Made by a program: the position numbers and the translations under genes. A stretch of 64,000 bases of DNA, taken from contig CAYJKF010000001.1 in NCBI GenBank assembly GCA_964370865.1, forward strand, positions 111,766 through 175,765, read 5' to 3'. This DNA comes from an uncultured Candidatus Saccharibacteria bacterium (GTDB lineage: Bacteria > Patescibacteriota > WWE3 > 2-01-FULL-39-13). The notes under the pieces were generated by a model. That model was given only the letters and a program-made list of their open reading frames with translations. It searched no databases and was not told the origin of the DNA. Of this stretch, positions 1,566-39,047 are shown one piece after another. Position 1 is the stretch's first letter. Each line of letters begins with the position of its first letter.

Positions 1566-1569
1566 CTTT

Positions 1570-1929: not shown

Positions 1930-1943
1930 TATTTATATTCTAG

Positions 1944-1976: not shown

Positions 1977-2032
1977 TTACTCCAAGATGCACTTTTATAA
2001 CTGCATCCTTCAATACCTAAATCGAGTTGTTA

Positions 2033-2455: not shown

Positions 2456-2601
2456 AATTCACCTCCTAAGGTAAAAATATTTTAATAAATATTAACTATT
2501 CAACTGAATAAATTCTATACAATAAACCAGATAAACACAACAAACAAGGCAACAGCAGATAATAGCACAACCAGGGTCAAATTGGTATACTTGTCCTAAT
2601 T

Positions 2602-4470: not shown

Positions 4471-4471
4471 T

Positions 4472-5461
4472 CTAAAGTACACCAAACAAATCGGTTACCA
4501 CAATTCTAACAATCACACCTGAAAGAATTATTAAAAATAATCCTTGTATCCAAGACATGAACATATCTTTTCCCTTTTGAATTGTTGCTGGATCACCGCT
4601 AGATAAGTTAAGACCAATTAGTGGAAGCATAAAGAGCGAAGAAACAACACCAAGTCCTATTGCTAAGATATGTGCATTTGATCCAAGTGCAGTAAAACAA
4701 GACTCAATTCCAGCATCTGGACTACAACCCTCAAATAGTCCCCCATCAAATTCAAAACCGGGACCACTTAAGGGATCTCCAGGCACTGGTACATCTGGAT
4801 CACCAGGCGCATCCACTGGGTCGGGATCGCCTTCTATTGGCTCTGGAACATCATCCTCGTCAAGCGGTGCAGTGTAATCGAAGTAGAATGGTTGCAAACC
4901 CAAGGCGTCACCATAAAATATGCTACCATCTCGCGCAGGATCCCTTACTGGCCTTAGATAGGATAAGTTGTAACTAGCATTGTCATTCAGTTCCTGAATC
5001 ATCGCTGTCGGCAATAAAGGGTTTAACGGAATTCTAAGACCTGCACCCGAAAATAATGCATCTAGGGCGGTAGAAAGTTCTGTCGCTTTTGCTTGGGTAA
5101 CTTCAGAAGGTGAATCTACGCCCAACATTTGAGTATATAACAATGCGTTTAGGCTAAAACTAAACATATCCCCTCCTGCAATTGGTACAATTTCTCCGTC
5201 TTGCACTGAATAATCACCAATGACGATAATATAGTCATTTACATAATCACCTGATTCTCCAATTCCATCCCAAGGAATTGGACTATAAGTAAGGGGGTTG
5301 AAAGTAATATCTTTAAGCGTTAAGTACATCATTCCATCCTCTGGGTCCTGTTCGTAACCAATTCCACCAATCAATACGTCATCCTGGGCATATAATGGAC
5401 TTGAAGATAAAAGAAAAAAGAAAATACCAAGTAATCCTAAAATTAATTTGTTTGTTATCAT
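4472..5461 (-). CDS. secreted Asp/Pro-rich protein with C-terminal hydrophobic hairpin
   Basis: 329 aa. Signal peptide ending LYAQ|DD. Acidic proline-rich stretch DPDPVDAPGDPDVPVPGDP. Two C-terminal hydrophobic helices. It is convergent with 2602..4470 with a 1-nt gap. Confidence 0.4.
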   Translation of the reverse strand: MITNKLILGLLGIFFFLLSSSPLYAQDDVLIGGIGYEQDPEDGMMYLTLKDITFNPLTYSPIPWDGIGESGDYVNDYIIVIGDYSVQDGEIVPIAGGDMFSFSLNALLYTQMLGVDSPSEVTQAKATELSTALDALFSGAGLRIPLNPLLPTAMIQELNDNASYNLSYLRPVRDPARDGSIFYGDALGLQPFYFDYTAPLDEDDVPEPIEGDPDPVDAPGDPDVPVPGDPLSGPGFEFDGGLFEGCSPDAGIESCFTALGSNAHILAIGLGVVSSLFMLPLIGLNLSSGDPATIQKGKDMFMSWIQGLFLIILSGVIVRIVVTDLFGVL

Positions 5462-5513
5462 TTACATAAATTTAACAGATAGCATTTAAAACTTCTATGC
5501 TAAAATATTTCTA

Positions 5514-5927
5514 ATGACAAATAGAAACAGTCGATTATTGGTTTTATTCTCAATTGCAAGCGCAGAGATTTCTTTTTTACTACCTCGGTATGCATATGCC
5601 CAAGGATGCCAATACGATTTGGATGGAGATCCCCCTGAATTTGGGCCTTATATAGTTTCGTGTTTCCCTAATGTATGGTCAACGATGAGTACACTTATGA
5701 TTGCAGTCGCAATAGGCAGCGCGATGTTACTTCTTTTTACTACTATTAGAGCAAGAAACAATCCTAAAAATTTAGAAACCATTCCTTCGAGATGGATGAA
5801 TTTGATTTTATTTGCCCTTCTAGCAATTGGAGTAGGGGGAACATTATTGAATTTCTTATTAGGCCTTATTGGAGCTGGAAGAGTTCAAACATACATCGAT
5901 ATGCTAGAAAGTGTTTTAAATCCTTAA
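5514..5927 (+). CDS. small secreted membrane protein (signal peptide + two C-terminal helices)
   Basis: 137 aa. Signal-like N-terminus ending AYAQ|GC, a Cys-containing short domain, then two hydrophobic helices. Its architecture resembles the pilin-like set. Confidence 0.35.
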   Translation: MTNRNSRLLVLFSIASAEISFLLPRYAYAQGCQYDLDGDPPEFGPYIVSCFPNVWSTMSTLMIAVAIGSAMLLLFTTIRARNNPKNLETIPSRWMNLILFALLAIGVGGTLLNFLLGLIGAGRVQTYIDMLESVLNP

Positions 5928-5939
5928 AGAAATTTTATT

Positions 5940-7397
5940 CTATTTTCTCTTTTTTGGTCCTGCATCTTCTCCACCGAATAGGGGTTGAACTCCAAGTAAG
6001 CCATCTACAATTTTTCTAGCATTTCTTGCTTTCCAAATTATAGAAATACCAAGAAGCCCCTTTAGTAATACGAACCAAAATTCTAATGTTGTATTAATTA
6101 TATTAAACCCGCTAAACAAAGACTCGCCACTGACATCAGGAGCTATACTCATAATTCCCAAACCTATGACTACAAGAAGGAGCAATAACGGTAATGCAAT
6201 TACATCTGAAACGATTCTCTTTCCAAGATTCATAGCAAGACCCTGTTTACCAGGTAGAACTGATAATAAACCAACAAATGGCGCAAGAACGATTGTTGAT
6301 ACAAGGGATACAAAAATCTTAATGAAACCCCAAAGCCCCGCAAACATAACTACTACTATACCTACAATTGCGGCGACCAAAAAAAGTGCCATTCCAACAC
6401 CATATACGTGTAATCTACTTATTACTCCTATGGCACTATTTAGTGCTCCAACTGCAATAGTCCATACACTAATATCCTGAACCGTGCCCCCCATAATACT
6501 CACGAGTAAGGTTGCCCCGATCCTTAAAGCAAGACCGAGTAGAGGCGGGATTAATGCAAAAGCAGCACTAATAATCGGATAGGATAATAAAATTATTCCA
6601 AGTCCTAGCGGTATTAATGGAAGTACGGAATAAACTGACACCGTGACTTGAGGAGAAATTTTAGTTCTAAACATAATCATCAAACCTACGAGTGCTAGAG
6701 CTGCTCCGAAAAGTGCCAAAGAAATATTTCGTGTAATTTTCCAAGACTCTAAAACAAACTTCTCAAAGGTAGAACCAAAAAAACCGCTCTGAGCATAGGC
6801 CGGTGTAGTAAAAATTGTATTTCCTAAAGTATCGTCAACATATAAAGCTAAATTTGTAGGAATTGGTGCCGTATTAGGTGAAGTCAAGAAGGCGAGACTA
6901 TTACTACCTATATGCCCCAAGCCGTTAGGAATTCTGACATACTCACCTTTTCCAAGATCATTAAAATTTGTTGCATTTGTCCATGTTGCGGCTGGGTCAA
7001 TACAAACTCCACTTTCTAAAAGCTCTTCCATTGTTTGATCGCATACATGTTGAGTTATATTGTTATAAACCAAATTTTGCATTAAAAATGATTGCCCCCA
7101 CATATTCGCATTTAATTCGCATTGACCATCTGAATCTACAAATTCTTTGAAACCACACCATAGGTTGTATACAGAAGATAATGATCTCCAAGCTTGTACG
7201 CCAGCTGTAACCGGATTGATAGCCTCTGCAGGAGTTGGATCTACTAATGCTCCAACTTGTGCATTTGTGGCATTTGGTTTTAATAGTGCAGACATTAAAA
7301 CAGCAAAAATGAAAATTGATAAGGCAAAGGGGAATACCCTGTCACCAAAGTTTTGTATTTTTCTAATTAATGAGAATAAAGCGACGATAATATTCAT
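5940..7397 (-). CDS. polytopic membrane protein, VirB6/TrbL-like candidate
   Basis: 485 aa. N-terminal signal/TM, a ~180-aa extracytoplasmic region, then at least 6 hydrophobic helices and a basic C-terminal tail (KKRK). The call rests on topology and genomic context only. Confidence 0.4.
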   Translation of the reverse strand: MNIIVALFSLIRKIQNFGDRVFPFALSIFIFAVLMSALLKPNATNAQVGALVDPTPAEAINPVTAGVQAWRSLSSVYNLWCGFKEFVDSDGQCELNANMWGQSFLMQNLVYNNITQHVCDQTMEELLESGVCIDPAATWTNATNFNDLGKGEYVRIPNGLGHIGSNSLAFLTSPNTAPIPTNLALYVDDTLGNTIFTTPAYAQSGFFGSTFEKFVLESWKITRNISLALFGAALALVGLMIMFRTKISPQVTVSVYSVLPLIPLGLGIILLSYPIISAAFALIPPLLGLALRIGATLLVSIMGGTVQDISVWTIAVGALNSAIGVISRLHVYGVGMALFLVAAIVGIVVVMFAGLWGFIKIFVSLVSTIVLAPFVGLLSVLPGKQGLAMNLGKRIVSDVIALPLLLLLVVIGLGIMSIAPDVSGESLFSGFNIINTTLEFWFVLLKGLLGISIIWKARNARKIVDGLLGVQPLFGGEDAGPKKRK

Positions 7398-7496
7398 AAA
7401 TATAATTAAAGTTATTCTACAAAATATAGAAACTAATACAAGCTATATAAATATCATTAACTACGTTTTTTTTGGTAGACTTTACTAAATTAATTT

Positions 7497-10400
7497 ATGC
7501 CACCAAAAAAGTTCGAGAAACCAGTCACATTTTCTGGATGGGTTGAAGATATATTTAATCTTCCTAAAGAAGTAACTAACCAGACATTCGGAGTAATAAA
7601 AACAAAACACCAAGAATATTTGGTATGGGTAGCTAAAGCTCGTGCCTCGGATGCTGATTATGCTGAAGCAGATTTAATTCGAGCTTTTACTGAAGGTGCA
7701 GAAGCTTTATCAGATTTACAGGGTATAAATACAACTATTAAAGTTAATGAACTATACGCGAAACCTATCAATACTATTAAAGCTCTGGGACAAAGCACTC
7801 TTAAACAATTGACTGACATGGATGATCTCGCTGGTTATCGACGTGCTGATGCAATCGCTAGGTTAACCAAGGGGCAAGTTACAGACGGACGAGGTAACAT
7901 ACCAAACAGCAGATATATTGATGTTGGTCGGTCAATCAATAATCCTCAAAATTTGATCTTAAAGGGACTAACTACTTCTAGAATAATTCCTCTAAAGCCT
8001 GACGCACTAGTAGAAACCACTCCTAGTGGAAAACTGCGATCAACCATGCAACTTGTAAAAGACGTAACGGAAGGAAAAGATCCAGCAGGTGTTGGAGATT
8101 GGGAAGATCGAAAAGTTGTGGAGGATGGTGTCGGCAGGGATCAACAACATAAACCGTATTTACAACTTTCCGGAGCGTTTTCGCAAATGGCAATGGGTCT
8201 TGAGTCCTATGGCTCAAGGTTAAGTCCAAAAATTACAGTTAATACCCAATACGGTCGCGCACTTGCACAAGAAGTAGGAATTGACCTGGAAAAGGTTTTA
8301 AACGGATCAAGAGGCGGATTGAAAGCCAGTTATGACCTAGACATTAAAGATGCAGTAAGCGGAAGACCAAAATTCCTAAAAGATAATAGACTCAAAAAGA
8401 GTGGAGCAGTAACAATAGGTTCTCTGCATCTCACACTAGCAGACGATGCTGGCGGTGATATTCGGAAATTATTATCCGATGACAATTTAATAGCTAAAGC
8501 ATTATCGATTAGCCCTACTGAATACACAAGTATGAGTGGTGAAGTCAAAGAATTCTTCAAAAACTTTTTAGAAAACGAAGAAATTCAGATTCGTTCCGGT
8601 TATTTAAATCCAAGGGGCGAACTTGGTGAAGAAATAAAAGCAAAATGGAATAATGCGGGACTCGTTCCCTCTCTAGAAGGCGAAATATACACTGGTGCAG
8701 GTGCTGCTTATATTAAGAATGACTTATATCATCTATCGAATGCAAAAAGTACAAAACAGTATCTATTAGGTGATGCGTCGCAAAAACAAATTAAAGCTGA
8801 GGCCTTAAAATCTTTGAAAAAAAAATACGGACATGACGCAAAGCTATTAACAGAAAAGACCGAAGAATTTTATGACAGATTGGCTGCGTTAAATGAAGCT
8901 ACGGTATCTGCCAACACCTTATTCGCCTCTGCAACAGTTAAAGATGCACTTAAAGCTATAAAAGATGGCGATTTTATTAAAGCAGCAATCGTCAATACAA
9001 GATTGCTGGGAATGATTCCGTTTTCAAACAAAAAGATGAGATCTCCAATCGAGTGGGCTGAAATTCTTATGCCTGATAGTGCACAAGATATCATCAATAA
9101 GGGAATAAATAGACTAACTAAACCGAAAATCGATGAGTTAAAGAGATTAGCATCAAGTACGACAGATCCGGTAATTCAACAAAGATACCTTAATCAAATT
9201 AAGAATCTAGAAGGTCTGAAAAACTGGATTAATCCAATTACAATTGCCAAGAAAGTTAGCGATACCGCACAGACAGCCATTGGTATTAAGGTAAAAGGAA
9301 GTCAATTAAACGCTGCACAAAAATTGATAAATGAGCAGACCGGACTGTTCAACTCAACTGTCTTCCTGGAATGGAGACAAAGAGATCCCGTATCCATGCA
9401 AAACGCTAAACGCTACACCATGACGCGAGTAAGTTCAAAAGATGCACAAGGCTTATATGGTAAATTTGGGGTTTTTAGTATTTTTGAAGACATAGAAGCA
9501 GCAAATTTATTCGCACATCCAAGCCTATCTGGCCTCCCATATATACATGATATGCAAACGATGTTTACTGATTTATCAAACATCGATGCATTCTATGCGG
9601 AATTAGCTCGAGTTCAGAGCCATTTAAAAGCGGGGACTCCAATACCTGCGGATTTATTAGATTTTTATAACAACGTCGTAGTACCAATGAATTTCCACGA
9701 GGCATTAGGAGGTGCGGGGGAGTTTGTCATCGACAAGGTAATGGATGGATACAATCAATATAAAGTATCAGGCAAAGTTTTACTTAATAAAATATCTGAT
9801 GACGCGAAAATGGGAGTTGGCAAATTGCATGCCATTGACAGGTGGCAATTTTTAAAAACCTTCAAAGGAAGTGGCCGTGCATCACAACTAAATGATTTAT
9901 ATACAGGCTGGTTAACAAAATATAACCGCTATGCCAACTTCTTCAATGATTACATCCAAAAAAATATTATATTTGGCGATGTACTACTTGGTGTACCTAT
10001 CTTGGGAAAACTTTTTGCTCCTATTCAGGCAGTCTTACGTACGATTGGATTTAGCGAGGAAGTTACAATTGCGGCAACTGTGAGACAGTGGAAATGGGTT
10101 CAACGGCTAATCGGAACAGGAGAAAAAGCGTCGAACATAGGGGGATCACTTTCGGCACGAAGCAGTGGTTCATTATTTGTTAAATCAAGATTTTTAAGGA
10201 ATTTAACATCAAAGTTAACAGGAAAATTTGCTGGCACAGCATTAAAAGGATTAGGATTTGCACTTAAAGGTTTAACCTCTGTAATAACTGGTGGTGTAGC
10301 TTTTGTAGTTTCCACTCTCGGTACGATGGCGTTCAGTGCCAGTTTAAAACTTATTAGAGGTGATGTAAAAGGCGCAAAAATCGCGATTAAAGATGAATTT

Positions 10401-11438
10401 AAAGGATTAGTAAAAGTAGCAAAAATTGTCGTCGGTTATCCTCTTCTTGGGTTTTGTGGCTGCATTATTATTCCAATCGTAGGTATTGCCTTTGCCGTAA
10501 TCGCGATTATGGTACCAGGTTCCATGGCGCCATTTGAAGAAGTTGGTGAAGCCGTAAATGTCGGATCGGCTCTCAGTCAATCCGACTTACTACAAGTTAA
10601 TAAATCAGCAACACTTAGCGGCGACAATACTCAAATAAACTACACAGTTGTAATTACGAATATACACACACCGACTGAACCAGATGATACAGGTGAAGTT
10701 ACAATCCAACAGATTAGTGATGTCTCGTCAATGATTTTAGGATGCGACGAACCTAATGGCGGTACTTCACACAGATATGGAGATGCTGGCTTCATAGGAA
10801 ACTACGATGCTGGTTATAATTTCAACCAATATACTGGCCATGTTTTAGCAACAGGTGAAAGCTTAACCATTACTTATACTCTTTCGAATATTACAGACAA
10901 AGATGCAACGTATAATAACAATATTAACGTCCACGAATCTAGAGAAAAAATAGCTGGAAAATATGCCATCGCGAATTCAACAACAAACATAGGTAACGGG
11001 GGGTGTAATACATGTCCTAGCGGGTGGCCTGTCACTGGTGCGGTTAATATAACTAATAGGCCTGGAGAAAGTTGGACACACAGAGGTCTTTGGCCTCATT
11101 CAATAGATTTGTCACTTGTTGAAGGAACTGAAATTTATGCCACCCATAGCGGAACCGTAGCAACCTCAAATACTGGTAACTTCGGTTATGGTACACATAT
11201 TTATCTCACCTCACCGATGGGGTTTACTAGTATTTATGGACATCTTAGCGGTTTCGCGGTAGAAAACGGAGCGACTGTTCAGGCTGGAGATTTAATCGGC
11301 TATTCTGGTGATACCGGTAACTCATCCGGTCCGCATCTGCACTATGAATTCAGAATCGGGGGCTATTGCCAAGGTCAACCACTTAAGATGAAACCACCTT
11401 TCACGCCATATTATGTACCTTATGATCCGTCGTATTAG
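7497..11438 (+). CDS. giant (1313 aa) protein with central TM hairpins and C-terminal M23/LytM peptidase domain (cell-wall hydrolase)
   Basis: The C-terminus has the M23 signatures HRGLWPHSIDL (HxxxD) and GDTGNSSGPHLHYEF (HxH), flanked by glycine-rich beta segments. Residues ~870-1000 contain several hydrophobic helices (VAFVVSTLGTMAFSASL, LLGFCGCIIIPIVGIAFAVIAIMV). The N-terminal 850 aa are predicted helical and non-secreted. Confidence 0.65.
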   Translation: MPPKKFEKPVTFSGWVEDIFNLPKEVTNQTFGVIKTKHQEYLVWVAKARASDADYAEADLIRAFTEGAEALSDLQGINTTIKVNELYAKPINTIKALGQSTLKQLTDMDDLAGYRRADAIARLTKGQVTDGRGNIPNSRYIDVGRSINNPQNLILKGLTTSRIIPLKPDALVETTPSGKLRSTMQLVKDVTEGKDPAGVGDWEDRKVVEDGVGRDQQHKPYLQLSGAFSQMAMGLESYGSRLSPKITVNTQYGRALAQEVGIDLEKVLNGSRGGLKASYDLDIKDAVSGRPKFLKDNRLKKSGAVTIGSLHLTLADDAGGDIRKLLSDDNLIAKALSISPTEYTSMSGEVKEFFKNFLENEEIQIRSGYLNPRGELGEEIKAKWNNAGLVPSLEGEIYTGAGAAYIKNDLYHLSNAKSTKQYLLGDASQKQIKAEALKSLKKKYGHDAKLLTEKTEEFYDRLAALNEATVSANTLFASATVKDALKAIKDGDFIKAAIVNTRLLGMIPFSNKKMRSPIEWAEILMPDSAQDIINKGINRLTKPKIDELKRLASSTTDPVIQQRYLNQIKNLEGLKNWINPITIAKKVSDTAQTAIGIKVKGSQLNAAQKLINEQTGLFNSTVFLEWRQRDPVSMQNAKRYTMTRVSSKDAQGLYGKFGVFSIFEDIEAANLFAHPSLSGLPYIHDMQTMFTDLSNIDAFYAELARVQSHLKAGTPIPADLLDFYNNVVVPMNFHEALGGAGEFVIDKVMDGYNQYKVSGKVLLNKISDDAKMGVGKLHAIDRWQFLKTFKGSGRASQLNDLYTGWLTKYNRYANFFNDYIQKNIIFGDVLLGVPILGKLFAPIQAVLRTIGFSEEVTIAATVRQWKWVQRLIGTGEKASNIGGSLSARSSGSLFVKSRFLRNLTSKLTGKFAGTALKGLGFALKGLTSVITGGVAFVVSTLGTMAFSASLKLIRGDVKGAKIAIKDEFKGLVKVAKIVVGYPLLGFCGCIIIPIVGIAFAVIAIMVPGSMAPFEEVGEAVNVGSALSQSDLLQVNKSATLSGDNTQINYTVVITNIHTPTEPDDTGEVTIQQISDVSSMILGCDEPNGGTSHRYGDAGFIGNYDAGYNFNQYTGHVLATGESLTITYTLSNITDKDATYNNNINVHESREKIAGKYAIANSTTNIGNGGCNTCPSGWPVTGAVNITNRPGESWTHRGLWPHSIDLSLVEGTEIYATHSGTVATSNTGNFGYGTHIYLTSPMGFTSIYGHLSGFAVENGATVQAGDLIGYSGDTGNSSGPHLHYEFRIGGYCQGQPLKMKPPFTPYYVPYDPSY

Positions 11439-11457
11439 TGTTGTAAAATAAGTTAAA

Positions 11458-12489
11458 ATGATTAGTATAAAACCTTTGATAGAAAAAAATAAAAAAATAG
11501 CCATATTAATTCTAGTTTTATTTTTGGGTGGTTTAATTTATTATCTATTTTCGAGCGGTATATTTTTAGGTCCTGGACCAGGTACAAGTGTCATTGACCT
11601 TTCTACACCAAGTATTAATGTAGCTGGAAACCAAGAAAGTAAATATAAGATAGAAAGATCTCTTTATTTCAAAGTTACGAATCCGCACGGCGGTGAAATA
11701 CTTCCAATTTATAAATATAACAAAAATGATTTAACTACTGATGAGCAGTTAATAGGAAAAATAGCCGAAGAAGTTGGACTCACCAAAAAAAAAGAAATTA
11801 ATTCAGTTGGACAAGGAACTGTCCTTGTTTTGCATTCAGAAGATAGTGCAAGGGGTATCACATTAAATAAACAAAACAACGTTCTAACTTATAGTAATAT
11901 CAGCTACGACAAAGCTATACATTTTAAAACCAACGATCAAATCGAAAAGGCTCGTAATTCAGCAGAAAGTTTTTTGAAGGAATTAAACCTCTGGAGTGAA
12001 AATTATAGTCTAATTGGCGCTCTATATAGAGATGATAAAATATCTTCTCAACAGCCAGAAACTTCAACCCCACTAAATCAGTCTACAACTGTAGAATTTT
12101 TATTTGAAAATAAAATTGATGGCTATGAAGTATCTACTCTACCCTATTCGGTTCAAGGTGATTATATTAATATCGCGGTATCCGCTGATAATTACACCAT
12201 CACAAAAATTCAATTAGTAATTTCAGGTGAAATTTCAAGTGAACAAGGCAAGGTAAAGATTATTTCATTAAATGACCTTATTAGAGATATAGATAATGGA
12301 AACCTAAAATTAATAGATACGTTAGCAGAACCTGATGCGGTATTTGACAGAATCGTTGTGTCGGAAGCTACTATCTTTTATTATGCACTTGATGGTCAAA
12401 TAGTTCCTGCATATAGAATTACAGGAACAGCAACTGACCAACGAGGGCAAGCATCGCCTGTTTATTTTATCGCCAATGCTTTCAAATAA
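11458..12489 (+). CDS. bitopic membrane protein (N-terminal TM, extracytoplasmic domain); VirB8/PrgL-like candidate
   Basis: 343 aa with a single N-terminal helix IAILILVLFLGGLIYYLF, then a soluble domain. The VirB8-like call is based on size, topology and neighbourhood only. Confidence 0.35.
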   Translation: MISIKPLIEKNKKIAILILVLFLGGLIYYLFSSGIFLGPGPGTSVIDLSTPSINVAGNQESKYKIERSLYFKVTNPHGGEILPIYKYNKNDLTTDEQLIGKIAEEVGLTKKKEINSVGQGTVLVLHSEDSARGITLNKQNNVLTYSNISYDKAIHFKTNDQIEKARNSAESFLKELNLWSENYSLIGALYRDDKISSQQPETSTPLNQSTTVEFLFENKIDGYEVSTLPYSVQGDYINIAVSADNYTITKIQLVISGEISSEQGKVKIISLNDLIRDIDNGNLKLIDTLAEPDAVFDRIVVSEATIFYYALDGQIVPAYRITGTATDQRGQASPVYFIANAFK

Positions 12490-15400
12490 AATAGTTTATA
12501 AAATAATATTGGTTGCATTAATCCCTGTTGTGGTAATGGCAATTTTTGCAAATAGAAAAACCGAAAAAGTGTGCGCACAAGTTGAGGGCTTTGACCCAGC
12601 AAGCGCATTCGCAGAATGTATAGGACCGGAACTTGCAGCATACATGCTAGCAATATTAGATGCACAAGCTGCTGGATTAATTCCTTCTAATATCAAACTA
12701 CTATCTCCAGCCTTTAATATGACTTCGAGTACTCTTAATCCTATTGTTGGTGCTGTAAACGAAGCAGCTCCAGGAATCTTTAATCATCCAAATTTAGTTG
12801 GAATTGCAGGTAATATATATGACACTAGTGGTGGAAATTCTATGGGAGATTACTGGTCGAACCAAAATATTAACGGGCTATTTGGAAATATCCCAATTTA
12901 TATTACTGAAACAGGAAATACTGAAAATAGCGGACTATCAAACAGACAAACTGCAGATAATATTGCCGCATTACTGCAAAGCAATCCTAACATTCAAAAT
13001 ATTTCGCTATTTGTTCCAACCGGAAGTAATCCCGCGTATGGTCATCATTCGTGGTCTCAAGACGAAATAAATTATCTTTGCAGCATAACTAACGGGTGCG
13101 AAAAAATTGGTATTAATTATGGAACGTATTTTGGTGGAAATGATTATCACGATGTTAATAACTACAATATGAATTCAGGACTGCAAATCGCCGACATGGG
13201 AAGTATTCCAAGTATTATAGAGGCAGTAAACAATTCTAACGGGGATGTAATTGTAAGAATTGGAGTTGGATCAAGTTCAGGAGGATTTGATACTCCACAA
13301 GCTTATATAAAGTTTCTTAAAGAATTGGGTGACAGTTTACCCCCTGGAGCTAGCGTATTTGCTATTGCTGGTCCAAACGAACCGGATTTAGAGGGCTGGT
13401 TAAGTCCAGAATGCATGAACCTCTTACCTATTAATCCAGCTGACATGTTATGTGGAGGACGAATTGATGAAAAACCCGTGGGTTATCGAGGTGAGGTCGT
13501 TGGACATAATGGTGAAATTCCATGGAGTATCAATTCTAACTTACATCAACAGAAAGATCTTATAGGTGGAACGGTTGAAGGTCAATTAGCATCAACCCTC
13601 CAAGCAGAATTTATAATAAGAGTCCCGCCAAATACTTTTAGACACAATGATTTTAGAGTCGTATCCGATCAAATGGTAGGTTCATTAGATCCAGATGATC
13701 CAAACAATCTCTATTTCGAAGATCGGTTGAGAGACGAAGATGGATTTATAAGTCCACTGAAAGCAAATATGCCTATTTTCAACTCAGCCTTACCTGGAGT
13801 AAAAATTCCGAGTAGTTATTCAGTTGGCATAAATGAGACCTTTCAGTTTGCAGAGTCAAATGAGACACCTGAAGCATATTTAGAGAGAATTTTCAAAAAA
13901 ACTCCTGAACCTGGAGATGGACGTAAACCAGAATTCGGATGGCTCACAGAAATGCCAGCAATGGTTTTTCGAGCATGTATTCAACGGTCTGCCTGCAACC
14001 TTGGTGTAGAAGAATGTTTGAGGGCAGACGGAAGCGGTGAGCTATGCGATGGGAGCGATGATGCTGAGGATTGTAGACCATTTGGACGAACTTTTAATTT
14101 GACTGGCAGGATTGGCCATCGAGAACCTACTGAACTTCACTCGATTTCAAGAAGTTTTGAATTGCAAAAGAGACAACTTGTAGATAGACCAGGCGAACCA
14201 ACTAGTTTCGGAGCTGTTGTAACACAAGAAGATTTGTCTAGATCAACCTATGTCTTTAAAGATCCTGATTTAAATGAGTTAGCGGATGGTATGAAATATA
14301 TTCAAGAGATAAGTCAAAATAGAAATACAAACTATAAAACCTCAAGTGGAAAAGAAGTAACAGTTGCCAACACTAATAATGGTTCTTTAATCAAACCTGC
14401 AGTGGCAAATGCTCAAGGTGATCCAATGGCTCAACCACAAGGGTCACTCGGTGTTGTTGTTATCGAGTTAGGAGGCAATCAGGTTCAAATAGACTATGAA
14501 ACATGTGTTTGGCATCAACTTGGATCTGCTTGTGCAATTCGAGATGTTAGTACAACAATTAATGGACAAGGAACTTTTAACTATATACCAGTTACTCAAG
14601 CAAATATACCAAGGTGTCTAAAACCAAGCTGGGGAAATGCTCCAGTTATTACAGCAGATCTTGCACCAGGAACTTGTACAACACTAAGTGTTCACACAAG
14701 AGGTGGTAGAGTTGGTCCAGAAGGTTGTAGCGATACCTATCAAGACTCCTGCGAAATTTGTAGAGCAAATGATGGAACGATAACTCAAACCTGTGGAATA
14801 ATTCCTCCACCACCACCCGTTGATTGTAGTCAATGTGCAAGTTGGGCACCCAGTTGGCTATGCGCACCAATTATCGCAGACCCCTTACCCGAAGAAACCG
14901 AGTGTGCAGATGGAGCATGTACCTCAAGCGGAAAAATAAGCATAGAAAAAGAGATTCCATGGCAGGATGATGATGATGACCCCGATGATATAAATGATTG
15001 GATTATAAACTGGCTCGATCGACTTAGAGAAGGGGATTTTACCTGGCTAAGTGGACTCTTGGCTGGACTTTTAGAGACAGAAAGAACTGGCGTTAGATGC
15101 GATATCGACTATTCTCTTCCTTCAGAGTCCCCGGGAGGTATTCGTTTCCCAATAGGAATTGAATGTTGGTTTGGATCGCGAGATTATTTAGTATATGCAT
15201 ATCCAATAACATATATTGGCGACTTTGGTGAGAGAACGGTCGATATGTCTATAAACAATGCTATGTTCAGATTAAGTAACAAAACTGACCAATATTTTTG
15301 GCCACAAAGTACAAAAGCACCAGTAACCTTAAAGCTATCGTTAAGAGATCCAACAATTGATGACGAAACCGTAAGATTTGAGGTCCCAAATGGATCCGAA

Positions 15401-16027
15401 CGAGGCTTTGAAATTGGCGCACAAAATACGTTTTATTTAGGACTTAATGACTCTGGTGAAAGAACCATGTTTGTTGAGTATTACTACTTTATGCAACCAC
15501 AGACGAGTGGACAGTGTTTAAAACAGCGTTTCTTATCTCAACCGATTCCTTTGCCTGGCGGAGGAACCGGAGTTCCACTAAGTCATAATACGCTTTGCGG
15601 TTCTCAGGATTTTTGGACTTCTGGCATTACTAGTGGCGACACTACTTCAGCAGTGGATCAAAGAATGATGGCAGCCGTAGAACAAATAGAACAAAATCTA
15701 CTTGCTACTACTGATAGCCAAGATAAAGTTGCCGCTGAAATAAATTTAGATCAAGATATAGTTCCTCAAATTCGAAAATTATATGAACAAGATAAGCATG
15801 CAGATTATGCTGGTAGCAAAATTATGTCGAACATGACATTATCAGAAGTTGAAAATCTTCAAAATCAATTTCTTTCTGAATTTGAAATCATCCTAAATAA
15901 ATACTTCATGTCGAGTGGTAAAGGAGTTTTTAAGGATATAAACGATACACCCGAAAGCATGGAGAAAGAACTAGATGCCTTAGTTAGAAAATACGATAAT
16001 CGGGTTAGCGCTATCGTGAATAACTAA
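12476..16027 (+). CDS. giant (1183 aa) secreted Cys-rich surface protein
   Basis: N-terminal TM/signal (IILVALIPVVVMAIF). A Cys-dense segment CSDTYQDSCEICRANDG...CGIIPPPPPVDCSQCASWAPSWLCAP, an acidic DDDDDPDD run, and no catalytic motif I can place. The start overlaps the previous gene by 14 nt. Confidence 0.5.
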   Translation: MLSNKIVYKIILVALIPVVVMAIFANRKTEKVCAQVEGFDPASAFAECIGPELAAYMLAILDAQAAGLIPSNIKLLSPAFNMTSSTLNPIVGAVNEAAPGIFNHPNLVGIAGNIYDTSGGNSMGDYWSNQNINGLFGNIPIYITETGNTENSGLSNRQTADNIAALLQSNPNIQNISLFVPTGSNPAYGHHSWSQDEINYLCSITNGCEKIGINYGTYFGGNDYHDVNNYNMNSGLQIADMGSIPSIIEAVNNSNGDVIVRIGVGSSSGGFDTPQAYIKFLKELGDSLPPGASVFAIAGPNEPDLEGWLSPECMNLLPINPADMLCGGRIDEKPVGYRGEVVGHNGEIPWSINSNLHQQKDLIGGTVEGQLASTLQAEFIIRVPPNTFRHNDFRVVSDQMVGSLDPDDPNNLYFEDRLRDEDGFISPLKANMPIFNSALPGVKIPSSYSVGINETFQFAESNETPEAYLERIFKKTPEPGDGRKPEFGWLTEMPAMVFRACIQRSACNLGVEECLRADGSGELCDGSDDAEDCRPFGRTFNLTGRIGHREPTELHSISRSFELQKRQLVDRPGEPTSFGAVVTQEDLSRSTYVFKDPDLNELADGMKYIQEISQNRNTNYKTSSGKEVTVANTNNGSLIKPAVANAQGDPMAQPQGSLGVVVIELGGNQVQIDYETCVWHQLGSACAIRDVSTTINGQGTFNYIPVTQANIPRCLKPSWGNAPVITADLAPGTCTTLSVHTRGGRVGPEGCSDTYQDSCEICRANDGTITQTCGIIPPPPPVDCSQCASWAPSWLCAPIIADPLPEETECADGACTSSGKISIEKEIPWQDDDDDPDDINDWIINWLDRLREGDFTWLSGLLAGLLETERTGVRCDIDYSLPSESPGGIRFPIGIECWFGSRDYLVYAYPITYIGDFGERTVDMSINNAMFRLSNKTDQYFWPQSTKAPVTLKLSLRDPTIDDETVRFEVPNGSERGFEIGAQNTFYLGLNDSGERTMFVEYYYFMQPQTSGQCLKQRFLSQPIPLPGGGTGVPLSHNTLCGSQDFWTSGITSGDTTSAVDQRMMAAVEQIEQNLLATTDSQDKVAAEINLDQDIVPQIRKLYEQDKHADYAGSKIMSNMTLSEVENLQNQFLSEFEIILNKYFMSSGKGVFKDINDTPESMEKELDALVRKYDNRVSAIVNN

Positions 16028-32755: not shown

Positions 32756-32775
32756 ACGCTAGAAAAGATATAAAT

Positions 32776-32797
32776 GAGGGCGCCTTCGGCGCCCTCA
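32776..32797 (+). terminator. GC-rich hairpin downstream of groEL (probable terminator)
   Basis: gagggcgcc-TTCG-ggcgccctc, a perfect 9-bp stem with a tetraloop, 20 nt after the groEL stop. The U-tract is weak (aaattctcc). It is unusually GC-rich for this genome. Confidence 0.45.
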
Positions 32798-32829
32798 AAT
32801 TCTCCCCTCTATGTTAAACTTTAGGTATT

Positions 32830-34074
32830 ATGGAGAATCCTGCCAATGAGCAATTAAACACCCAAGAAGTCAACAATTCAGAATTCGCACAGAAAGAGCC
32901 ACTTGTTTATAAAAAAACTATAAAAAAATATGCAATGATCGCGGTGAGTGGCTTATTAGGACTGGCCATAATAATTACTGCTGTCGTTATCTATATGCGT
33001 TTTATGGATAGATTTAATGTGACGGAACCAACTCCACCGGTGACACCAACACCAACTCCTGAAATACCAAAAGCAGCATCGCCATTAATCGCCTATATTA
33101 AAAATGATAAATCAATTTGGATTGTAAACACTGATGGAACTGATAAAAAAGTATTGCTCGAACTGCCTGGATCATCGGATCAGTTCTTCTCGGATCTGAC
33201 TTGGAAAAGCAAAGGGTTTCTATCTTATTCACTCTGTGACACAAATCCAAATTGTACTGTGGAGACTTATAATTTAGAGACAAAGTCTTCTGTAACAGAA
33301 ATTAATAATTCAGAAGAAGGATTTGTGGAGTCATTAACTTGGGCACCTGAAAATAAATTCATCGGGTATTTTCAATACAAAGACCAAGGATCTCAGAACC
33401 AAACGGTGGAACTAAGACTTAAGACTGGAACAACCAATACTGTTTTATCAACACATAAAACAGAAATAAAAGATATCGAACAAGTCTCAAAAGTAACTTT
33501 CTCAGAAGACGAGGATCATATAGCCTTTGGTTTTGTAGAATTAGTTGCTTCAACAAGAGGCCGGACTATTACATATACAGCAAAACCTAAAATCTTAGTA
33601 TATAGAGTAAGCGGAGTATTGTTGGATACAATCAGCGATGCCAAAGACCCGATGTTCATAGACGAAAAAACCATCGCATATCAAAAGGGAGCACAGCTCA
33701 TACATAGGGAAATTGGGACATTATCAGAAACAGCTATTACTCCAATAACAGGATTCAACTTAGATGTTTCTCCTGACAAAAGTAAGTATGCATATTGGAG
33801 CCCTACAGGTGGATTCTCAGATGCTTTATTAATTATTTTTGATGGAAACCTAAACCTTCAAAGGAATATATTAAGAGGCGTCCTATTTCCACAGTGGATA
33901 AGCAACTCTACCGTTGTTGGGATAAAAGCTGATAACTGTTTAGGTTCAAAATGTGAATTATTCGATTATCAAACCATTAGTTTAGCTACCGTTAACATCG
34001 AAACAAAACAAGCAAATCCAATTGATCAAGGTCGCACTATTAAAGATGTTGAAGTAAATTACTATGCCAATTAA
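32830..34074 (+). CDS. membrane-anchored hypothetical protein with Pro/Thr linker and beta-rich extracytoplasmic domain
   Basis: 414 aa. TM helix IAVSGLLGLAIIITAVVIYM, linker TEPTPPVTPTPTPEIP, then a repetitive beta-strand-like domain. The stop overlaps the next gene's start by 11 nt. Confidence 0.4.
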   Translation: MENPANEQLNTQEVNNSEFAQKEPLVYKKTIKKYAMIAVSGLLGLAIIITAVVIYMRFMDRFNVTEPTPPVTPTPTPEIPKAASPLIAYIKNDKSIWIVNTDGTDKKVLLELPGSSDQFFSDLTWKSKGFLSYSLCDTNPNCTVETYNLETKSSVTEINNSEEGFVESLTWAPENKFIGYFQYKDQGSQNQTVELRLKTGTTNTVLSTHKTEIKDIEQVSKVTFSEDEDHIAFGFVELVASTRGRTITYTAKPKILVYRVSGVLLDTISDAKDPMFIDEKTIAYQKGAQLIHREIGTLSETAITPITGFNLDVSPDKSKYAYWSPTGGFSDALLIIFDGNLNLQRNILRGVLFPQWISNSTVVGIKADNCLGSKCELFDYQTISLATVNIETKQANPIDQGRTIKDVEVNYYAN

Positions 34075-35746
34075 AGAAGAATCACTAGAGGCCAATGCAG
34101 GTCAAAAACACCCAGTCCCACAGAACGTCATGGATGTTGAGTTTAAAGTTGTAGGAGATTTAACATTAAGGCAAGTCATGTATATTGCATTTGGGGGAGT
34201 TACAGCATACTTTTTATATAAAACAGGTTTACCAAATTTCTGGAAATATATACTAATGGGAATAAGTTTGATTACCGGAACGACAGTTGCTTTTGTTCCA
34301 ATTCAGGAACGCGGGCTTGATAAATGGTTAGTTATATTTATTAATTCAATCGTGAATCCGACCCAAATGATATGGAGAAAGTCTGTTAATTATGCCTCTG
34401 TATCCTTTTTATCAAACTACGACCAACTTCAAATAATAAAAAACGAAATGGTCTCACTTACACCTATTAAGAATCGTAACCGACTAGAAGAATATTTGGG
34501 TATGATTGAAAACACTCAAGATTCTAATTATGACCAATTCGAGATAACCCGAATGGGAGAAATCCAAAATAACCTAAGCGCTAAATCAAACGTTAGTGTC
34601 ACAACTCGCTTTGAAGAAACTCCAACTCTAGAACCTGTAATTCCGACTATTGATAAAGCCAGAATTCCAGAGAGAACACATGAAATAATTGACGTAGAAA
34701 AGAATCCAAAAATAGCTTCTCTTCCACACCAAAATACCATTGCTGAAGACGAGCTGGAGAGTAAGAAGGAGTTATTAAATGCCCTAGCAAACATCGAGGG
34801 AGGGTATAATAAAGATGGGCCAATCGAAATCTTTACTGAACAAAAGGTTAACAGACCTATTCTAAATCTACCTGAGCTTGGATCCAATAACTTCTCCTTG
34901 AAGGGTGAAATTAAATTAAAGAATATACGTAAATTCCCAACGGTAATCGTTGCCGAAGATATAAAAGGCATAAAAGAGCACGAAGAATCTCTAGAAAAAA
35001 AAGTATCAGAATTATTAATACTCGCAAAAAAAGCTAGAGCACAGTATCAAATTAAAAGTGGAAAAGAACCTAGTTTTAATACACCTATTGTTGAGGACGT
35101 TAAAGGCAGGGTTACGCAGTTAAGAGAGGAAAAGAAAAAACTTAAATTGGAAATTGATAAAAGCACAGAACAAGTAAATCTTATAGATAATACAAACAAA
35201 AACAGAGAAACACTTCAAAACCAAATTCAGATGTTAACACATAAAAATGAGGAACTTGAAACCATACTAAAGAAAATTAACTTAGAACTTGATGAACTGA
35301 AAGGAACACCAGAATACAAGGCTTCCAAGCAAAAAGAACCTGTAGAAAAGGTTGAAACTGAAGAAACTAAAACTGAAGAAGTGTTTACACCTGAAAAACC
35401 AATTACCCCAAAACCAATCGACAACCAGGTCGATGAGTTTAAATTCAAAGCAAGGCCATCCGTCAATAGTTCGTATCAAAACACTAATATTATCGAAGGA
35501 CTTGTAAAAGACATCTCTGGTAAACTAGTAGAAGGAGCAGCGGTTATTATTAAAGACTCACAGGGAAATGTTATTAGAGCCCTAAAAACTAACCAAGTCG
35601 GACAGTTCAGAACGCAGACTTCTGTACCAAATGGCAAATATACAATTGAAGTACTAAAAGGTGGCATGAGTTTTGATATTATAATAGTTGAAGCCGTTGG
35701 AAGGCATCTGAATCCAATTTACTTAGTAGCCAAGGAGTTAAATTAA
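34064..35746 (+). CDS. PrgI/VirB3-like two-helix membrane module fused to long coiled-coil domain
   Basis: The N-terminus DLTLRQVMYIAFGGVTAYFLY plus a second helix ILMGISLITGTTVAFVPI resembles the PrgI family of Gram-positive T4SS. It is followed by ~350 aa of K/E/L heptad-rich sequence. It lies directly upstream of the VirB4-like ORFs. Confidence 0.45.
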   Translation: MPIKEESLEANAGQKHPVPQNVMDVEFKVVGDLTLRQVMYIAFGGVTAYFLYKTGLPNFWKYILMGISLITGTTVAFVPIQERGLDKWLVIFINSIVNPTQMIWRKSVNYASVSFLSNYDQLQIIKNEMVSLTPIKNRNRLEEYLGMIENTQDSNYDQFEITRMGEIQNNLSAKSNVSVTTRFEETPTLEPVIPTIDKARIPERTHEIIDVEKNPKIASLPHQNTIAEDELESKKELLNALANIEGGYNKDGPIEIFTEQKVNRPILNLPELGSNNFSLKGEIKLKNIRKFPTVIVAEDIKGIKEHEESLEKKVSELLILAKKARAQYQIKSGKEPSFNTPIVEDVKGRVTQLREEKKKLKLEIDKSTEQVNLIDNTNKNRETLQNQIQMLTHKNEELETILKKINLELDELKGTPEYKASKQKEPVEKVETEETKTEEVFTPEKPITPKPIDNQVDEFKFKARPSVNSSYQNTNIIEGLVKDISGKLVEGAAVIIKDSQGNVIRALKTNQVGQFRTQTSVPNGKYTIEVLKGGMSFDIIIVEAVGRHLNPIYLVAKELN

Positions 35747-36442
35747 ATGAATAACAATATCAAAACTACGACACAAGGTCACCTTGACATAGCAGATATA
35801 AAAAATAATATTGTAATCTTAACAAACGGAGGAGCCTGCGCAATTATAGAAACCAATGCAATTAATTTTGATTTATTATCCCTACCCGAACAAGATGCAG
35901 CGATTTCATCCTTTAGTGCGTTGCTCAATTCCCTAACTTTTCCAATGCAGATTACAATTAGATCAAAAAAAATGGACATAAGCGAGTATTTAGAAAGGAT
36001 TAAAGAAGTTGAAGATAAACAAACAAACCCCAAGATCAGAGGACAAATAATGGCATACAGAACGTTCATCAAAGACGAACTTGTTACAAAAGAGGAAGTT
36101 TTAGATAAAAATTTTTACGTCACTATTCCATACAAAACAGTTTCTCTTGGTTCAATTTCACCTATGACTTGGATAAATGACTTAATGAATTTAGATACAA
36201 AAAACAAAAGTAAAATAAATGTCGAATCCATATTACAAGAAGCTACTCCAGATCTAGCCCCGAAAATTTCGTTTATACTTAAAGAATTCTCGAGGATGGG
36301 AATAAAAGCAAGACAATTAGGAACTGGCGAATTGATTAAACTTTTCTATGATTTATATAATAGTGAGAGTGCTCAGAGCCAGAAAATGAGGACCAATATG
36401 GCAGACTTCTCGTCTGTATTAGTTGAGCCAAAATTAGGATAA
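35747..36442 (+). CDS. VirB4/PrgJ-like conjugation ATPase, N-terminal domain (separate ORF)
   Basis: 231 aa. HLDIADIKNNIVILTNGGACAIIETNAINFDLLSLPEQDAAISSFSALLNSLTFPMQI matches the N-terminal domain pattern of Gram-positive VirB4 homologs. It ends at TAA 36440-36442, 4 nt before the next ORF, which is in a different frame. Confidence 0.55.
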   Translation: MNNNIKTTTQGHLDIADIKNNIVILTNGGACAIIETNAINFDLLSLPEQDAAISSFSALLNSLTFPMQITIRSKKMDISEYLERIKEVEDKQTNPKIRGQIMAYRTFIKDELVTKEEVLDKNFYVTIPYKTVSLGSISPMTWINDLMNLDTKNKSKINVESILQEATPDLAPKISFILKEFSRMGIKARQLGTGELIKLFYDLYNSESAQSQKMRTNMADFSSVLVEPKLG

Positions 36443-36446
36443 AAAT

Positions 36447-38561
36447 ATGTTAGGAATATTTGGGAAGAAAAAACAAGAGAAACCAAAAACTAATATTCCA
36501 AGCGATATGGAACAACCCGAAAATGTATCGAAAGCACTCTTAAAGGGAATTCCAGGGGTAAAAGATATAATCGCACCAAGCGCAATTGAAGTTGATTATA
36601 ATCATATAAAAATTGGAGATAAATATTTCAGAACCCTATTCATTTCTGCATACCCAAGATTCTTAGGCGCAAACTGGCTAGAACCAATAATAAACTTCAA
36701 TCATACAATGAGCATTTCAATGTTTTATTATCCAGTAAATGCGAGAAATGTTTTAGATGATATGAGAAGAAAAATCGCAGAAATGGAAGCCTCCATAAAC
36801 ATTGCGCGCGACAAAGGTAAAGTTGTAGATCCTGGAATTCAAGTGGCTCTGGAAGATGCGAAATCGCTACAGGAACAACTAGTAAAAGGGATTGAAAGAT
36901 TTTTTCACTATTCGTTCTATGTAACGTTTTCAGCCGATTCCTTAGAGGAACTAAAGGACGTATCTTATCAAGTTGAATCAACATTAGGGTCAATGGGACT
37001 GATGTCGAAAAAAGCTTCCCTTGATATGGAAAATGCTTTTAAAAGCACCCTTCCTCTTTGTTTAGATAAACTAAAAATAATTCGAAACATGGATACTACT
37101 TCCGTGGCTACAACCTTTCCGTTTACATCCAGCGATTTAACGGCGAATGAAGGAATTTTATATGGTGTAAATAAACATAACAGATCATTGGTTATTTTTG
37201 ATCGATTTAGTCTTGAGAACTACAACACTGTAGTCTTTGCCAAATCAGGTTCTGGTAAATCATATCTAGTGAAACTTGAAGCACTGAGATATTTGCTATT
37301 TGGCGTGGATATTATCGCCATAGATCCCGAAACTGAATACAGAAGATTATGCGAAGCTGTTGGGGGAGACTATATAGACTTCAATATAAAAAGTCAATCT
37401 AAGATAAATCCTTTTGAATTACCAGTTGTCACTGATACAGAAGATCAGTTAAGTCTTAAAATTTTAAGCCTTCATGCTCTTTTTAAAATTATGTTAGGAG
37501 CACTCTCCCCTGCAGAATCATCTATTCTGGATAGAGCCTTGGTAGATGTATATAGACTAAAAGGCATTACACAGGATGCTGCCACACAGAAAAATGAGCC
37601 TCCTCTAATGGAAGATTTATATAAAGTTCTACTTGCCATGGATGAACCAGAGTCTAAAGCTATTTCCGAGAGACTCGAAAGATTTATAAAGGGCTCCTTA
37701 GCAGGTGTATTTGATCAACGTTCAAATATCAATTTAGATAATAACTTCACTGCATTTTCGATTCGAAACCTTGAGGATGTATTAAGGCCAATCGCAATGT
37801 TTATGATTTTGGATTTTATTTGGACAAAGGTTAAATATGATCTCAAAAAACGTATATTAATTTTGGATGAGGCCTGGACGTTAATGCAATATCCTGATTC
37901 GGCTGCATATGTTTATTCATTAGCGAAAAGAGCCCGAAAATATTTCTTAGGATTAACAACTATTACTCAAGATGTTGCCGACTTCTTAGGTTCAGATTAT
38001 GGAAAAGCTGTTTTAAATAACTCCTCAATTCAAATACTACTAAAACAACATCCAGCCGCAATCGATAAAGTTGCTGAAGTCTTTTACTTGTCAGCAGGAG
38101 AAAGAAATTTCTTGCTTTCAGCAGGTGTTGGCGAGGGATTATTCTTTGCTGGAACCAACCACGTGGCAATTCAATTCAAGGCTTCGAAACAAGAACATTT
38201 GTTAATTACTACAAATCCTCAGGAAGTTGCGAAAATCGATGCTGATAAAAGCTTTAATGATTCACTAAAAACCGTAGATGAAAAAAACCAAACTAATGCT
38301 CCTCAGCAAGTGGGGATAGCTAATAAATATCAAATTATTGAACAGATTCCGCAACAAACACCAGTAGAAACCAATAGTGAAGTTATTGATCCTTTCGATA
38401 AAATTAGTCCCGTCTCAACTTCAGATGAGACTAAACCTATAAGCAATGCCGGCATTACTCCAATGCCAAATCCCTACTCTGGAATAACTGGAGATGACAG
38501 TGAAAATTATAAATCTGGAACAATTATTCTAAACGAAAGAAATTCAAGACCTACGGCGTAA
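36447..38561 (+). CDS. VirB4/PrgJ-like conjugation ATPase, ATPase body (Walker A/B) with C-terminal low-complexity tail
   Basis: IKIGDKYFRTLFISAYPRFLGANWLEPIINF (VirB4 mid-region), Walker A FAKSGSGKSY, Walker B RILILDEAW, then a ~100-aa Pro/Thr/Asn-rich tail. AGGA ribosome-binding site 7 nt upstream of the ATG. Confidence 0.7.
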   Translation: MLGIFGKKKQEKPKTNIPSDMEQPENVSKALLKGIPGVKDIIAPSAIEVDYNHIKIGDKYFRTLFISAYPRFLGANWLEPIINFNHTMSISMFYYPVNARNVLDDMRRKIAEMEASINIARDKGKVVDPGIQVALEDAKSLQEQLVKGIERFFHYSFYVTFSADSLEELKDVSYQVESTLGSMGLMSKKASLDMENAFKSTLPLCLDKLKIIRNMDTTSVATTFPFTSSDLTANEGILYGVNKHNRSLVIFDRFSLENYNTVVFAKSGSGKSYLVKLEALRYLLFGVDIIAIDPETEYRRLCEAVGGDYIDFNIKSQSKINPFELPVVTDTEDQLSLKILSLHALFKIMLGALSPAESSILDRALVDVYRLKGITQDAATQKNEPPLMEDLYKVLLAMDEPESKAISERLERFIKGSLAGVFDQRSNINLDNNFTAFSIRNLEDVLRPIAMFMILDFIWTKVKYDLKKRILILDEAWTLMQYPDSAAYVYSLAKRARKYFLGLTTITQDVADFLGSDYGKAVLNNSSIQILLKQHPAAIDKVAEVFYLSAGERNFLLSAGVGEGLFFAGTNHVAIQFKASKQEHLLITTNPQEVAKIDADKSFNDSLKTVDEKNQTNAPQQVGIANKYQIIEQIPQQTPVETNSEVIDPFDKISPVSTSDETKPISNAGITPMPNPYSGITGDDSENYKSGTIILNERNSRPTA

Positions 38562-39042: not shown

Positions 39043-39047
39043 TATTA

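Follow-up and report, generated by a model that had tools for sequence, protein, structure and literature searches.

Across 3,035 Patescibacteria genomes, Quinonero-Coronel et al. (2025; PMC12102498) described type IV secretion systems (T4SS) whose VirB4 ATPases form a monophyletic clade nested in MPF-FATA. These systems are chromosomal and relaxases are rare; TrsD is their commonest associated component, and PrgI/VirB3, VirB2-like pilin arrays and VirB6 are present. Southlakia epibionticum requires its T4SS to grow as an epibiont (Wang et al. 2023; PMC10633639). Here we describe a locus in a 64,000-nucleotide stretch of contig CAYJKF010000001.1, from an uncultured bacterium placed in WWE3; we refer to the whole of this stretch as the window. 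Positions 32830-38561 of the window, which we call locus B, hold four closely spaced open reading frames (ORFs) in the ORF list, all on the plus strand. They encode a propeller-like protein of 414 amino acids (aa), named p414; an extended PrgI/VirB3-family protein (560 aa); a TrsD-like protein (231 aa); and a VirB4 ATPase of the CD1110 type (704 aa). We consider it highly probable that locus B is the cytoplasmic-membrane energising module of a chromosomal Patescibacteria-type T4SS in a WWE3-class genome. Its putative structural partner is locus A (1203..16027), a pilin/VirB6/M23 block.

Several features are shared with the Patescibacteria-clade systems. VirB4 is accompanied by a separate TrsD and a PrgI/VirB3 neighbor, the genes are chromosomal with no relaxase nearby in the window, and the window also encodes an M23-type hydrolase. 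Candidate counterparts of the pilin array and VirB6 are small ORFs with VirB2-like topology and a VirB6-like protein. The nearest VirB4s are all from Patescibacteria, and by its ranking of VirB4 identities locus B matches the Patescibacteria T4SS clade, to which it would belong. Unlike the published systems, the WWE3 version is laid out in two loci approximately 16–17 kb apart, with locus B fixed by groESL. It also has a propeller gene before prgI and a 560-aa PrgI with a coiled coil and a beta-sandwich. What this adds to the published account seems modest: a longer PrgI, a propeller gene specific to WWE3 and a two-locus arrangement that is conserved. The locus fixes the ATPase module by groESL and the pilin/VirB6/hydrolase module some 16 kb off, with VirB4 split in the lineage. 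The gene layout, the split, the order of fusions and the conserved PrgI extension are useful for modeling the machine, and they leave the current picture unchanged.

Among MPF-FATA systems of the CD1110/CTn2 and pCF10 type, Brevibacillus plasmid NZ_CP144923 likewise has PrgI directly upstream of a CD1110 VirB4, and it carries a cell-wall hydrolase nearby (NlpC/P60). That plasmid encodes a VirD4, a PrgI of 136 aa and a VirB4 of 804 aa in one piece. In the window, by contrast, PrgI has 560 aa, VirB4 comes in pieces of 231 and 704 aa, and neither VirD4 nor a relaxase is seen. The window VirB4 is no more than 37% identical to the VirB4s of plasmids. The TrsC-TrsD-TrsE genes of pGO1/pSK41 also keep TrsD separate from VirB4 and are the only classical subclass so built (PMC12102498). 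The staphylococcal pGO1 system is plasmid-borne and conjugative, however, and the TrsD of the window is distant from its family profile (26 versus 200 bits). Loci of Chloroflexota and Actinomycetota (L046, L053, L054, L061) have the same gene order, with VirB4 identities of 34–45%, and those of Chloroflexota have a small VirB2-like gene with two transmembrane (TM) segments just upstream. Their PrgI proteins are either short (125–155 aa) or fused to TrsD, and none carries the beta-sandwich extension.

The VirB4, TrsD-like and PrgI proteins

The 704-aa protein encoded at 36447..38561 is a VirB4-family ATPase, as the original prediction, made from the sequence by a model, had proposed. It scored 396.5 bits against the NCBIfam profile for CD1110-family VirB4 (NF045971; cut-off 325, E = 2.3e-118), matched the structure of a VirB4 C-terminal domain (PDB 4ag5, E = 1.2e-47) and gave 105 bits with Pfam PF19044. 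The Walker A (GSGKSY, aa 268–273, 37248..37265) and Walker B (ILILDEAW, aa 470–477, 37854..37877) motifs on the plus strand, which the prediction had called intact, are so. The prediction would have fallen had the ATPase grouped with FtsK/HerA or another AAA+ clade, or had the PrgI hairpin lacked profile similarity; neither proved to be so. Identity as HerA/FtsK was rejected because HerA/DUF87 gave 26 bits, far under the CD1110 VirB4 score, and identity as CedB was rejected with 52.6 bits against a cut-off of 700 (NF041017).

The C-terminal ~120 residues of VirB4 (aa 586–704) form a low-complexity tail rich in Q, P, S and T. In tblastn comparisons the matches extended as far as query positions 698–703 in four WWE3 relatives (L002, L007, L012, L069). 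The VirB4 ORFs of Microgenomatia measured 635–658 aa, so the tail is shorter there; its length tracks the longer PrgI linker in WWE3.

VirB4 had been thought to lie directly downstream of the PrgI gene. Instead, the 231-aa TrsD-like ORF (35747..36442) lies between them: its start codon is the base right after the prgI stop, a spacing of 0 nucleotides (nt), and 4 nt separate it from virB4. The original prediction did not describe this gene, p414 or the C-terminal beta-sandwich of PrgI.

The alignment of NF045971 spans profile positions 186–744 of 752, and the N-terminal domain of VirB4 is not on the same polypeptide. The TrsD-like protein matched positions 100–236 of another NCBIfam profile, VirB4_plasma (NF045975, E = 4e-10), and gave 26.4 bits with the TrsD/TraD profile NF041427 (E = 5e-6). 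The curated cut-off of the latter is 200 bits, and we therefore speak of distant homology to the TrsD family and not of membership. When the same profiles were run on 17 orthologues, TrsD was matched by all 17 (best E = 4.3e-10), VirB4_plasma by 16, CD1110 VirB4 by ten and TIGR00929 by six. The protein also aligned to aa 69–264 of a 937-aa Ktedonobacteria ORF in which TrsD and VirB4 are one (E = 3.7e-21). PDB sequence searches with TrsD, as a single sequence or as a 17-sequence profile, returned no structure of a VirB4 N-terminal domain; the TrsD–VirB4 link consequently rests on the NCBIfam profiles and the fused ORF. A remote homology between TrsD and the N-terminal part of VirB4 is known (PMC12102498). 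Taken together, the TrsD-like matches and a VirB4 covering positions 186–744 only indicate that VirB4 is encoded in two parts, its N-domain being a protein of its own. The split is a conserved trait and not a frameshift.

The 560-aa protein (34064..35746) starts with a PrgI-type hairpin, in agreement with the original prediction. Pfam PF12666 matched aa 17–98 (34112..34357, plus strand) at 32.8 bits (gathering score 27, E = 1e-7), and the hairpin motif DLTLRQVMYIAFGG occupies aa 32–45 (nt 34157 onward). In an AlphaFold2 model built from a 48-sequence alignment, this domain comprises the N-terminal motif, a TM hairpin (aa 35–53 and 58–77) and an amphipathic helix (aa 84–97), with predicted local distance difference test scores (pLDDT) of up to 96. 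Residues H16, P19, Q20, F27, Q37, Y40, A76, F77, R83 and D86 are invariant.

Beyond the PrgI domain, the model has short helices that reach aa 175 and low confidence at aa 176–222 and 245–292. Coiled-coil-like helices follow at aa 293–331, 341–372 and 379–413 (34940..35302; pLDDT ~80–94), where 75–80% of heptad a/d positions are hydrophobic versus 9–30% elsewhere. A disordered linker rich in P, T, E and K (aa 414–476) leads to a C-terminal transthyretin-like beta-sandwich of the CarboxypepD_reg type (aa 477–555, 35492..35728; pLDDT at least 95). Pfam PF13620 scored 32.3 bits on this domain, which equals its cut-off. Foldseek superposed it on the C-terminal transthyretin-like domains of carboxypeptidase D/N and on CnaB (E ~1e-4). 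A PDB sequence search with the whole protein gave a weak match to the beta-sandwich and nothing else. The coiled coil, put at about 400 aa in the original prediction, thus shrinks to about 120 aa, the extension also holding two disordered linkers and the beta-sandwich.

VirB3 proteins are 10–15 kDa with short cytoplasmic ends (PMC12857230), and canonical PrgI has ~120–135 aa. With an extension of ~460 aa, the window protein does not share that small size. Its gene does neighbor virB4 with trsD alone in between, an order kept in ~30 loci, and the extended architecture is kept in 85 near homologues. PrgI with a beta-sandwich was found in every WWE3 (540–625 aa) and Microgenomatia (330–430 aa) locus examined and is absent from a 125-aa Chloroflexota PrgI. 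The WWE3 proteins differ from those of Microgenomatia mainly in that linker and coiled coil together are ~200 residues longer. When 1.84 billion representatives were searched with a profile, 3271 clusters at 50% identity matched at E ≤ 0.001, of which 1465 reached E ≤ 1e-30. Among the 150 best clusters, most are 430–750 aa long and most aligned over nearly the whole profile. Long PrgI with a beta-sandwich is therefore a large family, of at least 1465 clusters at 50% identity. The text of PMC12102498 makes no mention of CarboxypepD_reg/PF13620, a coiled coil or WWE3, and that of PMC10633639 makes no mention of PrgI or VirB3; the large extension seems to be undescribed in these two papers.

Conservation among relatives and residence in the chromosome

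One genome per species was scanned for relatives, and 74 loci were found by VirB4 tblastn identity. The nearest VirB4 is on a Patescibacteria metagenome-assembled genome (MAG) fragment (98%), followed by WWE3 MAGs (65–77%), Microgenomatia (Woese-, Collier- and Beckwithbacteria; 52–63%), Gracilibacteria and Peribacteria (46–50%), Chloroflexota (40–45%) and Actinomycetota (34–40%). The top 45 loci (46–98%) carry Patescibacteria labels or labels judged wrong by gene order, and loci from outside the candidate phyla radiation reach at most 45%. The record titles that look taxonomically wrong are those of Pseudomonadales or Saccharibacteria MAGs with Microgenomatia- or WWE3-type loci (L013–L030, L050, L051, L070), a judgment that rests on gene order and identity.

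The order groES-groEL-p414-prgI-trsD-virB4 is kept in seven WWE3 loci with VirB4 identities of 68–77% (L002, L003, L006–L009, L012; tblastn). L012 keeps the downstream DUF192, polyamine synthase and S-adenosylmethionine decarboxylase genes as well. Its matches to the synthase (BpsA) and the decarboxylase are on the virB4 strand, DUF192 alone being convergent. The order in Microgenomatia is prgI-trsD-virB4, with no groESL and no p414. Several of these loci have VirB6-like or M23-peptidase matches within ~5 kb upstream; L016 and L025 combine prgI-trsD-virB4 with a VirB6-like gene and a pilin-like array on one stretch.

The two-locus layout recurs in OZ246395.1, a complete WWE3-like chromosome (L075). 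There, locus B is at ~14.7–24.0 kb and a syntenic locus A at ~39.3–55 kb, running RNase H, a 1281-aa and a 341-aa protein, M23, VirB6-like and pilins; a 241-aa gene is also syntenic. The loci are again ~16 kb apart, and locus B is inverted relative to the window.

Further from WWE3, the same genes occur as fusions. PrgI and TrsD form a single ORF of 309–331 aa, with the PrgI motif and hairpin followed by the TrsD domain, in Nocardiopsis, Thermoactinospora, Thermomonospora and Actinomadura. The Actinomycetota loci with this fusion are L054, L055, L056, L059, L062, L065 and L066. A different fusion occurs in Ktedonobacteria (L061), the MAG whose TrsD and VirB4 form the 937-aa ORF mentioned above. 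PrgI, TrsD and VirB4 are separate in the Chloroflexota loci L046 and L053, the latter with a 101-aa VirB2-like ORF just upstream. A 348-aa PrgI-TrsD ORF called in Chloroflexota L048 was rejected as wrong-frame in a GC-rich genome (the true PrgI has 131 aa), and the longest-ORF calls in the actinomycete loci L058, L060, L068 and L071 were disregarded for the same cause.

Within the window, locus A ends 16.8 kb upstream of locus B, and the genes in between are housekeeping genes, as the original prediction had stated. They encode RNase H, ribosomal protein L25, FtsJ, leucyl-tRNA synthetase (LeuRS), NAD kinase, a deoxynucleoside kinase, GroES/GroEL, a pseudouridine synthase, two tRNAs and a family 2 glycosyltransferase. 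The prediction took this separation as a sign of an old, chromosomally integrated system, and that view is supported. Loci A and B cannot be told apart from 14 housekeeping genes by overall G+C content, G+C content at third codon positions or synonymous codon usage (r = 0.97–0.985). Pfam annotation of 45 of the larger ORFs of the window, which include LeuRS, polynucleotide phosphorylase, initiation factor 2, NusA, L25 and a class-Ib (Trp/Tyr) tRNA synthetase, revealed no relaxase, coupling protein or integrase domains. We therefore regard locus B as an old chromosomal system and not a recent mobile element; synteny in the seven WWE3 loci and the published picture (PMC12102498) agree. Recent horizontal acquisition was rejected on native composition and conserved synteny.

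Topology of the PrgI extension and role of the machine

A sequence scan found no hydrophobic segment downstream of the PrgI hairpin, which places the extension on the same side of the membrane as the N-terminus. Both termini of VirB3 are cytoplasmic (PMC12857230), and VirB3-VirB4 fusions are known (PMC12102498). The PrgI-TrsD and TrsD-VirB4 fusions described above imply a chain order of PrgI, TrsD and VirB4, with the C-terminus of PrgI in the compartment of VirB4. By analogy with VirB3 topology and these fusions, we infer that the PrgI extension is cytoplasmic.

In our proposal, the system goes back to the MPF-FATA machinery of monoderms. PrgI would be a two-helix membrane hairpin with both ends cytoplasmic, docking VirB4 via TrsD, the separately encoded N-terminal domain of VirB4. 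Its extension of juxtamembrane helices, linkers, coiled coil and beta-sandwich would hang into the cytoplasm beside the VirB4/TrsD barrel, and the coiled-coil arms may position the beta-sandwich at the side of the ATPase barrel or below it. ATP hydrolysis by VirB4 would drive assembly of, and transport through, a channel and pilus for which locus A would provide pilins of the VirB2 type, a polytopic protein resembling VirB6 and, for the cell wall, an M23 hydrolase. Because the window has no relaxase or coupling protein, the role is presumably a non-conjugative one between cells, either pilus biogenesis or the transfer of protein or other cargo to a host cell. The likeness for such a role would be Saccharibacteria, in which a homologous system is essential for epibiotic growth; to our knowledge, this is the first T4SS shown to be essential to its own carrier bacterium.

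A bolder version of this proposal is in our judgment unlikely. It holds that the long PrgI is an innovation throughout the WWE3 and Microgenomatia systems, that its coiled-coil arms carry a ring of beta-sandwiches at the cytoplasmic side of the TrsD/VirB4 barrel, and that this ring receives or gates the substrate, a task otherwise done by a coupling protein, none of which is seen beside these systems. The propeller, confined to WWE3, would be an external, host-facing part.

Several observations weigh against the energising-module assignment or the cytoplasmic placement of the extension. Domains of the CarboxypepD_reg type are usually extracytoplasmic. The TrsD-like protein falls well short of the curated TrsD cut-off. 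None of the small ORFs of locus A has a Pfam match at threshold; the best pilin match there is to T4SS_pilin at E = 0.018, and the match of the homologue in OZ246395.1 is also flagged as weak. Finally, VirD4 homologues lie far from virB4 in many genomes (PMC12102498), and outside the 64 kb of the window a relaxase or coupling protein may be encoded.

Because its fold is usually extracytoplasmic, the PrgI extension is conceivable as an extracellular stalk, an arrangement that we judge unlikely. The T4SS module would be the same, with an N-out/C-out hairpin, and the coiled coil and Ig-like sandwich would form a wall-crossing stalk or adhesin replacing the missing VirB8/VirB10-type parts. Folds of the CarboxypepD_reg, CnaB and transthyretin-like kind are characteristic of surface proteins, VirB8/VirB10 homologues are scarce in the lineage (PMC12102498), and the charge bias at the hairpin is weak (3 K/R versus 6 D/E in the N-terminus). 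This topology conflicts with the cytoplasmic termini of VirB3 (PMC12857230) and with the PrgI-TrsD and VirB3-VirB4 fusions, which need a cytoplasmic C-terminus. The conserved motifs are found at the N-terminus and right behind the second TM segment, and the loop of ~4 residues between the TM segments is too short to bind VirB4. Moreover, the extension has no Cys, in contrast to the conserved Cys pairs of the predicted p414 ectodomain.

It is more doubtful again that the machine is mainly an importer, taking DNA or nutrients from its host in the manner of Ced or ComB. The weak similarity to CedB noted above would fit an importer, as would the lack of a relaxase and coupling protein in the window, the reliance of Patescibacteria on hosts for nucleotides (PMC10633639) and the co-localization of T4SS loci of class ABY1 with competence genes (PMC12102498). 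The score of the conjugative CD1110 VirB4 profile is far above that of CedB, however, and the sequence indicates no transport direction. In Southlakia, natural transformation is not an essential nucleotide route for DNA synthesis, and the essentiality of the T4SS cannot stem from an interaction with ComEC (PMC12857230).

It is very improbable that locus B belongs to an integrated conjugative element or is what remains of one after decay: although its nearest characterized families (PrgI, TrsD, CD1110 VirB4) are conjugative and plasmid VirB4s are up to 37% identical, no integrase, relaxase or coupling protein occurs among the 45 larger ORFs scanned, composition is native, groESL synteny is kept across WWE3, and the four genes are intact, with the VirB4 split conserved and no frameshift.

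The p414 gene, locus A and other genes of the window

The first gene of locus B, p414 (32830..34074), overlaps prgI by 11 nt. Its product is bitopic, with a TM helix at aa 28–62, a P/T-rich linker and an all-beta ectodomain; in the AlphaFold2 model (predicted template modeling score 0.65) the strands span aa 86–409. Foldseek found the ectodomain to resemble beta-propellers such as tricorn, prolyl oligopeptidase and WD40 (E ~1e-7). Pfam gave WD40 matches below threshold only, and a precomputed PF26550 label on p414 homologues was not reproduced by our Pfam scan. We found seven homologues, in which C136, C142, C370 and C375 are invariant. The gene sits between groEL and prgI in seven WWE3 loci and is absent from the other loci compared. 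We regard p414 as a candidate WWE3-specific accessory subunit of the secretion system.

Upstream of p414 is groEL (31130-32755), and a GC-rich hairpin of 10 bp lies between the two genes (32775..32797). The hairpin may be a groESL terminator that sets locus B apart as its own transcription unit; its function on the plus strand is uncertain because a T-rich tail is present on the minus strand only. A promoter and terminator scan of 30500-39200 returned 18 promoter-like sites versus 30.3 in shuffles, and therefore no promoter was assigned at locus B.

In locus A, the small VirB2-like ORFs, recognized by their two-TM topology, are at 1203-2455 (three in tandem) and 5514-5927. A 7-TM protein with VirB6-like topology is encoded at 5940-7397. 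The other locus A proteins are one of 329 aa whose C-terminus is weakly T4SS_pilin-like, one of 1313 aa that has three TM segments and ends in an M23 peptidase, a bitopic protein of 343 aa, and a secreted, Cys-rich protein of 1183 aa with 28 cysteines.

Convergent with virB4, the minus strand of 38551-40359 encodes DUF192, S-adenosylmethionine decarboxylase and a BpsA-like branched-chain polyamine synthase. virB4 shares 11 nt with the 3′ end of the DUF192 gene. An overlap of 128 nt between ORFs 39048-39503 and 39376-40359 suggests that one start codon was called too early.

Further along the minus strand, a 355-aa protein (41039-42106) has a signal-like N-terminus and long D/E runs (e.g., EDEEDDDEDEDDENE), with no Pfam match. 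In most bacteria, AUA is decoded by a lysidine-modified CAU tRNA. The window carries a tRNA-Ile with anticodon UAU (43968-44044, minus strand), an uncommon solution for this codon. A 1029-aa protein (60890-63979, minus strand) combines a GH16 glycoside hydrolase segment with a CarboxypepD_reg-like domain, whose fold class is that of the C-terminal domain of PrgI.

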